From: a virus
Lineage: Duplodnaviria > Heunggongvirae > Uroviricota > Caudoviricetes
Strand: one strand, 5' to 3'
DNA: 64,000 nt
Virus record (IMG/VR): IMGVR_UViG_2721755711_000002
The notes beneath the pieces are model-generated. The model saw only the letters and a list, made by a program, of their open reading frames with translations. It was not told the DNA's origin and made no database searches. Positions 52,681 to 53,762 of this stretch are shown piece after piece (within the stretch, counting starts at the first letter, position 1; every line of letters begins with the position of its first letter). The translations under genes were made by a program, and so were the position numbers.

Positions 52681-52705
52681 AAAACAAAAAACCCGCCGAA
52701 GCGGG
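52681..52705 (-). terminator. intrinsic terminator of AT-rich cassette
   Basis: minus strand CCCGC-TTCG-GCGGG followed by TTTTTTGTTTT. Confidence 0.65.
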
Positions 52706-52727
52706 TCTGGTTATTGATGAATTAACT

Positions 52728-52988
52728 TCACGGTTTGGGCTGGAAATTCTTATTCAGCGCTCTGCACTGCTCTTTGTCTTCTTCTTCATGGGCTTTAAAT
52801 ACAGAATAAGTATCAGGGTCAAAAAACGAGATAGATTCTACTTCCCTCTTGGCTACAAGTATCCGAAAGTCTTCAAGGCTAAGGCCGCCAAGACCTTCCG
52901 CTACAATTCCTTCTGACTGATAATGTCGGCGGTAGTTTGTTGTGATGTTTGTAGTTAACGTACCCTTATCCCGATACCCGATACCCAC
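52728..52988 (-). CDS. hypothetical ORF (86 aa, GTG start inside heptamer repeat), possibly C-terminal part of upstream gene
   Basis: starts within GGGTATC repeat; +1 frame relative to 52966-53553. Confidence 0.35.
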   Translation of the reverse strand: MGIGYRDKGTLTTNITTNYRRHYQSEGIVAEGLGGLSLEDFRILVAKREVESISFFDPDTYSVFKAHEEEDKEQCRALNKNFQPKP

Positions 52989-53553
52989 TCAACAGCGGAA
53001 GAAGTTCAATATGGGTAAAATCGCCGTTTTCAAAACTTGGGCAGATAACAATTCCAACGTAAAATTTTCTGGATGAGAGTGTTATAATGACGGGAAACTG
53101 CCTGACTGCTGCTTCCATAAGGAAGCTCTCTTCTGGACTTGTGGAAACAATTCTTGCGATAGCATCCAACCTGCGATCCCCTTTCTCTGTTCTTTTTTTG
53201 CGCCGCCAACCGCAAAATGCAGCAAGAGCAACAGATGTCATTCCCCAGACTGCAGATTTAAGATCCTTTATCGAATTTCCTCCATCAAAAGAGATAGGAA
53301 AAACTCTTTTCAGGGCATCAGGACCAAGATGAAAAAAATGCAGAATACCGTTAATCAACCAGCGGTATACCCCAAGGAAACCAAGGATCGTACAAACAAC
53401 CCACGCAACACAGACAAAAACAGCTCCCCAGGTTGCAACAAAAAAATAAGCGTCCCATCCCACAGAACGCTTATACCTATATCTTGTTTCCAAACAAAGA
53501 GTAACATAAACATAACCACTAATCAGTATGACAGCGATCAATAGCGTATTCAT
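52966..53553 (-). CDS. multi-pass membrane protein (195 aa)
   Basis: several hydrophobic segments (LLIAVILISGYVYVTL, FFVATWGAVFVCVAWVVCTILGFLGVY); AT-rich. Confidence 0.5.
   Translation of the reverse strand: MNTLLIAVILISGYVYVTLCLETRYRYKRSVGWDAYFFVATWGAVFVCVAWVVCTILGFLGVYRWLINGILHFFHLGPDALKRVFPISFDGGNSIKDLKSAVWGMTSVALAAFCGWRRKKRTEKGDRRLDAIARIVSTSPEESFLMEAAVRQFPVIITLSSRKFYVGIVICPSFENGDFTHIELLPLLSGYRVSG
52970..52983. repeat. heptanucleotide tandem repeat (CCCGATA x2, flanked by degenerate copies) at ORF junction
   Basis: CCCGATACCCGATA at 52970-52983; preceded by CCTTATC, followed by CCCACTC. Confidence 0.85.
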
Positions 53554-53555
53554 TC

Positions 53556-53762
53556 TTACCCTAGCTTTTTGTTTTCCAATGACTCAAGCTTGTCCAGCTG
53601 TTCTTTGATAGCCTTTCTGACCTTGTCGTTCTCAAGGTTAACCATGATGAAACCATCGTCGCTTACTTCGAACTTATCCTTGTTTTCTTTAAGAACTTTT
53701 GACAACCTGTTCGATGGTGTCTGTATGGTTCCATACCCTCTTATTGCATATGCGAGACTCAT
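53556..53762 (-). CDS. small soluble protein (68 aa)
   Basis: ATG 53762 after GGGAGG RBS; first gene of AT-rich cassette. Confidence 0.45.
   Translation of the reverse strand: MSLAYAIRGYGTIQTPSNRLSKVLKENKDKFEVSDDGFIMVNLENDKVRKAIKEQLDKLESLENKKLG

Follow-up and report, generated by a model that had tools for sequence, protein, structure and literature searches.

A recent 7-bp duplication in the membrane-protein gene of a mobile two-gene prophage operon

Does a short tandem repeat lying exactly where two open reading frames (ORFs) meet mark a gene that can be switched on and off, or a gene that has been broken? The question is raised by an AT-rich cassette on the minus strand of a Caudoviricetes genome (IMG/VR record IMGVR_UViG_2721755711_000002), of which the stretch analysed here, hereafter the window, comprises 64,000 nucleotides. 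The cassette lies between the nin genes and hok and consists, in the direction of transcription, of ORFs of 68, 195 and 86 residues, the last two of which meet at a repeated heptamer. The original prediction, made from the letters of the window, had described this arrangement correctly and had proposed either a frameshift-inactivated gene or a slipped-strand on/off switch. By sequence comparison with relatives, the 195- and 86-residue ORFs are the halves of one gene, split by a recent, lineage-specific 7-bp duplication; the duplication allele is a null mutation, a fresh pseudogene and no programmed switch. The best explanation overall, to which we assign a probability of roughly 85%, is a frameshifted gene within a mobile two-gene prophage operon.

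Seen in this light, the heptamer is a minor matter: in a single strain, an ordinary mutation has very recently abolished the function of a gene. It shows that a repeat present in two copies where reading frames meet calls for comparative data before it is taken for a switch. The broken gene is the more interesting object. Its family comprises about 2,700 clusters (at 50% identity), has no Pfam model, no literature and no entry in a defence database, travels paired with a small protein, and appears repeatedly in loci where prophages hold anti-phage genes. The predicted architecture of the protein is unusual, combining a membrane-anchored Sm-like domain with a conserved terminator-like RNA element in the coding sequence. 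The latter, a terminator-like hairpin and U-tract within the large gene (53473-53440), is newly noted here.

One gene split by a 7-bp duplication

The disrupted large gene occupies positions 52728..53553 of the minus strand, which carries all genes of the cassette, and is the counterpart of an intact 272-residue protein, WP_001094287.1 (phrog_3630). Its first part, ORF1 (52966..53553), specifies the truncated 195-residue product (record WP_249530965.1); its second part, ORF2 (52728..52988), runs for 86 residues in another frame and holds the displaced C-terminal 80 residues of the large gene. The two meet at the tandem 7-bp duplication, two copies of CCCGATA followed by CCC (CCCGATACCCGATACCC, 52970..52986). 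Aside from the duplication, the residues of ORF1 and ORF2 are identical to those of the intact protein.

Relatives of the cassette decide between the two possibilities. It is present in nine of 5426 complete E. coli genomes, at 98.4-99.0% identity; in these nine the matched stretch falls 7 or 5 bases short of the query's length and has two annotated genes beneath it instead of three. Two loci with different nin backgrounds both annotate a single 272-residue protein, WP_001094287.1, and alignment of the window with its relatives leaves one clean 7-bp gap, at the heptamer. Ten contigs fetched by exact identity to the window's 68-residue allele all have an intact 272-residue gene. Altogether, 13 related E. 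coli loci were compared; every one has a single heptamer and an uninterrupted ORF of 272 residues, and five of them are identical to window positions 52650-53950 over 1301 positions save for the 7-bp gap. Because nothing else in the cassette differs, the duplication must be very recent. Exact-sequence look-up found the truncated product on one contig only, a complete chromosome of 5.33 Mb in RefSeq, and the intact 272-residue variants on 417, 33, 14, 5, 4 contigs and more; in IMG/VR the two-copy allele is on no contig and the one-copy allele on one. Farther afield, single ORFs of 240-316 residues account for all 58 clusters of a word-based search and for nearly all of the best 150 of 2728 clusters of a profile search. 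The first of the two original proposals, an inactivating frameshift, is thus borne out by relatives that invariably have one heptamer and one ORF, the nearest differing solely by the 7-bp indel.

The form of the lesion suggests how it arose. On the sense strand the site reads GGG followed by two copies of TATCGGG, the change in this genome being from GGGTATC to GGGTATCGGGTATC; the repeat amounts to 2.4 heptamer copies in the window, compared with 1.4 in every relative. It is the only perfect period-7 run of at least 17 bp in the 64-kb window, where 0.07 would be expected from shuffled sequences; bare 14-bp period-7 doublets are ordinary (5 observed against 3.2 expected). In the ancestral form, CCCGATACCC, a 3-bp CCC repeat stands on both sides of GATA, and since such microhomology is the expected substrate for a slippage duplication, replication slippage between the flanking GGG triplets probably produced the extra seven base pairs. 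These fall in the codons for GYR, so that the frame is lost after Arg192 and the product stops three residues later, at ...SGYR-VSG-stop. This places the break in the middle of the invariant SGYR motif, where strand β3 of the predicted Sm-like domain ends. ORF1 thus retains the three transmembrane (TM) helices and the first half of that domain; β4, β5 and the family-invariant residues D226, S240 and D243 are missing from the truncated product, the three residues being found in the ORF2 segment. ORF2 is probably not translated, judging from its GTG start, which has no Shine-Dalgarno sequence, and from the lack of an internal Met. The prediction that a change of one repeat unit would fuse the two ORFs holds for a loss, which restores 272 residues; a gain of one unit adds 14 nucleotides in all and stays out of frame, so that two units would have to be gained.

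The comparison draws on assembled sequences alone, and this weighs against it: an assembly error or heterogeneity within the culture may be present at the repeat. That the extra heptamer is an artefact of sequencing or assembly, and the gene really intact, would agree with its being a singleton among hundreds of contigs and with the identity of the rest of the cassette to intact alleles. We consider this very unlikely: a clean duplication of seven mixed bases is untypical of sequencing platforms, whose errors are mostly homopolymer indels, the ancestral CCC...CCC microhomology is what real slippage would be expected to use, and the truncated protein stands in RefSeq from the 5.33-Mb complete chromosome.

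A phase-variation tract, with one copy ON and two copies OFF, regulating a costly exclusion or abortive-infection gene, is more improbable still. Contingency loci, such as those that undergo slipped-strand phase variation in Haemophilus and Neisseria surface genes, likewise hold a short tandem repeat within an ORF, with a unit that is not a multiple of three, so that gain or loss of copies alters the frame. The perfect doublet with its partial third copy could in principle revert through slippage, and the mutation is so recent that the remainder of the gene is unchanged. However, the repeat has only two copies here, where known contingency loci have long tracts of many units, and the ancestor had one; the relatives are unpolymorphic, with one copy in 13 of 13, as a comparison of copy number across related prophages, the check proposed with the original prediction, revealed. 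The OFF product is recorded on one contig, the commonest intact form by itself on 417, and IMG/VR lacks the two-copy allele. Finally, the site is no dedicated repeat but an ordinary coding motif, the invariant SGYR codons, kept across genera for protein reasons.

The least probable alternative is that the split form functions, the truncated membrane part being active with or without a separate C-terminal fragment, for instance constitutively or as a dominant negative: ORF1 does keep all three TM helices and β1-β3, and ORF2 is still open, but the break lies inside the predicted β-barrel, the split form is found in no other lineage, and rejoining of the ORFs by programmed frameshifting or reinitiation was rejected for want of a slippery heptamer at the junction and, in ORF2, of a Shine-Dalgarno sequence and an internal Met.

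The large gene has also been lost elsewhere. It is truncated at 90 codons in Xenorhabdus vietnamensis (locus L020, 6001-6273) and at 19 codons in Candidatus Symbiopectobacterium (locus L026, 6001-6060), and thus decays independently, through different lesions.

A predicted membrane-anchored Sm-like protein and a hairpin in its gene

The intact 272-residue protein matches phrog_3630, annotated as "unknown function", with an E-value of 6.2e-92 (residues 1-271 on a profile of 274 positions). It has no match in Pfam at E ≤1, including the LSM and Hfq families, no significant match in NCBIfam and none in PADLOC-DB 2.0; 123 family members compared with PADLOC gave nothing consistent. The word-based search returned its 58 clusters, of 253-316 residues, from Enterobacterales, Aeromonas and others. 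The profile search, conducted over 1.84 billion representatives, extended the family to 2728 clusters at E ≤1e-3, 1728 of them at E ≤1e-10; among the best 150 of the 2728, nearly every one aligned over almost its full length, at 240-300 residues. The best-conserved block is LLPLLSGYRDK, within which S189, G190, Y191 and R192 are invariant. DUF6338, an uncharacterised Pfam membrane family with no known function, matches 6 of 123 distant members (best E-value 2.8e-7) but neither the window protein nor its close relatives.

The AlphaFold model, built with 43 sequences, has a mean predicted local distance difference test score (pLDDT) of 81 and a predicted template-modelling score (pTM) of 0.62. 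It places TM helices at residues 2-29, 33-60 and 93-122, in keeping with the multi-pass membrane protein foreseen originally, and follows them with a basic stretch, RRKKR, and a cytoplasmic domain made of two helices and a five-stranded barrel. The features that define the Sm fold, an N-terminal helix and a strongly bent five-stranded antiparallel sheet, are present in the model. The predicted topology of the large protein has the N-terminus outside, followed by three TM helices and an Sm-like domain in the cytoplasm. A sequence-profile search of the PDB returned nothing relevant, only a chance match to HigA at E 0.93. The family differs from Sm, LSm and Hfq proteins in the fusion of the Sm-like domain to three TM helices, in its lack of a Pfam LSM or Hfq match and in a long insertion between β4 and β5.

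A terminator scan flagged a hairpin followed by a T-run inside the large gene. The stem-loop (53473-53447, minus strand) has a 10-bp stem and a 7-nucleotide loop and is followed by AUUUUUUU, the U-tract (53446-53440); together they cover codons 27-38. Among 15 homologues with 58% nucleotide identity, codons for the same residue are identical at a frequency of 0.84 at the hairpin and 0.41 gene-wide, making this the top window of the gene, about 3.9 standard deviations above the mean. Codons 28-38 (K-R-S...W-D-A-Y-F) are near-invariant at synonymous sites; the loop codons and those just 3' of the hairpin vary freely. Covariation was examined in 20 sequences, including extra homologues fetched for their replacement of Asp34. 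Across these 20, 98% of cells are paired, and the pair 30-44 occurs as UA in 16 of them and as CG in the other four. In the four in which D34 is replaced (GAC to GGC in three, GAC to AGC in one), the opposite codon has undergone the synonymous change from CGT to CGC in every case and the pair is kept; all 16 sequences with GAC have CGT. None of 500 shuffles reached the observed covariation.

These patterns support selection on the structure of the hairpin beyond that on the protein, with the proviso that only one pair covaries. By its sequence, the hairpin with its U-tract looks like an intrinsic terminator or attenuator. Lying 80-115 nucleotides into the effector ORF, it would act as an attenuator of transcription, holding the effector far below the small protein. 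Several points weigh against this. The covariation comes from a single base pair and reflects perhaps two or three independent events, the U-tract is partly dictated by the conserved residues Y-F-F, and the hairpin was not found in distant subfamilies (<35% identity) and is specific to one clade. It is without a match in Rfam. An alternative is that the hairpin serves as a translational pause during membrane targeting of TM1. For the attenuator, a parallel is offered by ToxIN, which has a terminator between toxI and toxN: here, too, a terminator-like hairpin would stand between a first product and the bulk of a second, potentially toxic one. In contrast to ToxIN, the element of the cassette lies within the effector ORF, at codons encoding conserved residues, and its terminating activity is predicted from sequence. 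A more speculative extension is that the Sm-like domain could bind the U-tailed terminated transcript, much as Hfq binds small RNAs by their U-tails.

The small gene (53556..53762, minus strand) encodes the 68-residue soluble protein, which matches phrog_9843, also annotated as "unknown function", at E 3.8e-31 (residues 5-67, on a profile of 66 positions). Its stop codon is separated from the start of the large gene by 2 nucleotides. In all close loci, and in several more distant, a homologous ORF of about 60-75 residues abuts or overlaps the large gene on its upstream side. The model of the small protein consists of a helix, a β-hairpin and a long helix (pLDDT 68). Matches to VinK_C, DUF1828, ORF6N, Cas2 and TrmBL2 in Pfam, PADLOC and NCBIfam were far under the cut-offs and were rejected, the only PADLOC match being a sub-threshold one to Cas2 (E 0.0027). 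The names "multidrug ABC transporter ATPase" and "BTB/POZ domain-containing protein", given to some homologues (P0083, P0085, P0088, P0092 and P0103), were likewise dismissed as propagated annotation errors for a protein of about 70 residues.

A mobile gene pair and its possible function

The intact unit, composed of a strong Shine-Dalgarno sequence, a soluble protein of about 70 residues, a closely abutting inner-membrane protein of about 270 residues and a terminator, forms a prophage accessory operon of two genes, a moron, that is self-contained and moves horizontally. It has the features by which morons are recognized: a deviant base composition, presence or absence in related phages together with occurrence in unrelated phage backbones, and a terminator of its own. 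The AT-richness remarked on in the original prediction is real, the cassette having 39-44% GC and its flanks 50-57%. The 57 bp flanking it are found in 86 other complete E. coli genomes without the cassette, and homology to a second nin background begins at window position 52683, just beside the closing terminator. The possibility that the cassette is a conserved nin gene of known function is contradicted by its presence in only 9 of 5426 complete E. coli genomes. A point against an operon of this kind is that a sigma-70 consensus scan of the minus strand found no site in the window. By eye, most homologous loci have a -10-like TGTAnnnT box 30-45 nucleotides upstream of the Shine-Dalgarno sequence, the window version of which is weak.

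In E. coli the pair is found beside hok in two lambdoid nin types, one with DUF968, RusA and Q, the other with DUF1367, DUF1364 and DUF1133. In P2-like prophages of Salmonella, Klebsiella, Enterobacter, Photorhabdus and Pectobacterium it lies between gene A (or DinI) and the portal gene. In an Aeromonas siphophage it forms an island of 36-42% GC, in a phage of 60-65%, between the tail tube and tape-measure genes. The Aeromonas cassette (locus L044, 7785-8771; also L045 and L046) sits where the tail-assembly chaperone genes G/GT normally lie, and no other ORF of at least 50 residues that might encode the chaperone was found in that interval of L044. Pectobacterium chromosomes keep the pair as a DinI-linked remnant, the surrounding prophage having decayed. 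The remnant (loci L059/L060, 3277-5730) adjoins the gene for an 817-residue channel of the MscS family. MscS likewise joins TM helices to an Sm-like β domain; the proximity of the two genes is probably a coincidence.

What might the intact cassette do? In lysogens the pair would act as a phage-exclusion or abortive-infection module, with the membrane protein as an oligomeric effector and the small protein as its partner, either a sensor or a neutraliser. We adopt this view of a lysogen-expressed module with membrane effector, small partner and attenuator tentatively, from context and at slightly worse than even odds. That it represents an undescribed two-gene anti-phage system, in which a three-TM effector carries a Sm-like, possibly ring-forming domain and has its dosage curbed by an intragenic terminator, seems to us doubtful.

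The argument from context begins with P2, whose gpA-gpQ locus is a hotspot for defence genes, home to old and tin as well as to many systems of validated activity (Rousset et al. 2022, PMC9122126). Genes of unknown function in such hotspots are often defensive, as were six of eight tested in P4 (PMC13586616), and the transmembrane proteins of defence systems are generally viewed as suicide effectors (PMC9122126). Homologues of the cassette occupy exactly the P2 locus and resemble its cargo in being compact, low in GC and self-contained; unlike old, tin and the systems modelled in PADLOC, to which the cassette has no sequence relationship, its anti-phage role is a proposed one. The hotspot position, together with the low-GC cargo in three prophage types, supports the exclusion or abortive-infection module suggested in the original prediction, without proving it. 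Genes neighbouring 11 distant family members encode, among others, four integrases, transposases, a type I restriction enzyme and proteins of PD-Lambda-2, PDC-S24, PDC-S48, MADS and SoFic. In a P2-like Klebsiella phage, ST15-OXA48phi14.1 (locus L004, 4847-6486), the gpA-portal hotspot also contains, after the cassette, a 69-residue ORF and a gene for a protein with a SEFIR domain, a relative of the TIR domain, so that this one site accommodates two cargo modules in succession.

There are precedents for two-gene exclusion or abortive-infection systems with a membrane effector, namely RexA/RexB of phage lambda and the membrane effectors of CBASS and Thoeris. The cassette resembles these in its expression from a prophage and in the combination of a soluble partner with a multi-pass inner-membrane protein, and differs in that no homology was detected and that its partner has only about 70 residues. 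To our knowledge, no Sm-like cytoplasmic domain occurs among such membrane effectors.

Several observations count against a defensive role. Neither protein was matched in the PADLOC, Pfam and NCBIfam searches, so that function is read from context alone; the fold predicted for the small protein has no significant structural neighbour and is uninformative; housekeeping genes are also found among the neighbours of the distant members; and a literature search on the family by accession, PHROG identifier, Sm-like/LSm with defence, and DUF6338 found no paper. The intact cassette might instead be a toxin-antitoxin-like stabiliser, or have a role in the prophage life cycle or in the physiology of the host, one example being an RNA-binding regulator tethered to the membrane. 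The order of the operon, small protein and then membrane protein, is compatible with such a role, as are its position next to hok/sok, an internal terminator-like element that could fix the ratio of the two products, its retention in Pectobacterium chromosomes after decay of the prophage, and the fact that the Sm fold is usually RNA-binding. Recurrence in the P2 old/tin hotspot and beside other defence cargo, such as the SEFIR protein of the Klebsiella phage, speaks against it, and we regard a non-defensive function as rather unlikely. The two readings overlap in any case, since many toxin-antitoxin-like modules of prophages are defensive anyway.

If the intact cassette is indeed an exclusion or abortive-infection module, an anti-phage system would be spread over P2-like, lambdoid and other prophages of Enterobacterales and Aeromonas, and the window would hold a freshly inactivated copy of it. 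The natural 7-bp duplication allele provides a ready isogenic null control, making the cassette a cheap candidate for experiment.

Cassette boundaries and neighbouring genes

The small gene is preceded by the Shine-Dalgarno sequence GGGAGG (53768..53773, minus strand) that had been noted originally, 5 nucleotides from the ATG, and the 17 homologous loci inspected all have a GGAGG-type sequence ahead of this gene. The description of the cassette as bounded by terminators holds at one end. Downstream, an intrinsic terminator (52708-52689; feature entry 52680..52708, minus strand) with an 8-bp stem, a UUCG loop and a U-run closes the cassette (-13.4 kcal/mol, z = -3.4). Upstream, after hok, there is a weak hairpin with a 5-bp GC stem and UUUU that, with a z-score of -0.45, does not stand out from shuffled sequences.

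Directly upstream of the cassette lies a complete type I toxin-antitoxin locus, hok/sok, with a Hok_Gef protein at 54009-54221 and the sok RNA at 54159-54333 (minus strand; Rfam RF01794, 113 bits). Hok and the cassette, which occur together in two nin backgrounds of E. coli, may move as one block. In E. coli JNEC-KY180 (locus L001, 5063-6698) a "beta family protein" and a "sce7726 family protein", neither present in the window, are encoded beyond hokD and make up another pair of variable cargo genes. The window itself has, beyond hok/sok, two adjacent ORFs of 187 and 196 residues (54455-55608, minus strand) with no Pfam match. The same position is taken by other genes in loci L048-L056, for instance those for DUF4014, an HNH protein and DUF551, and this is therefore another variable stretch of the prophage.

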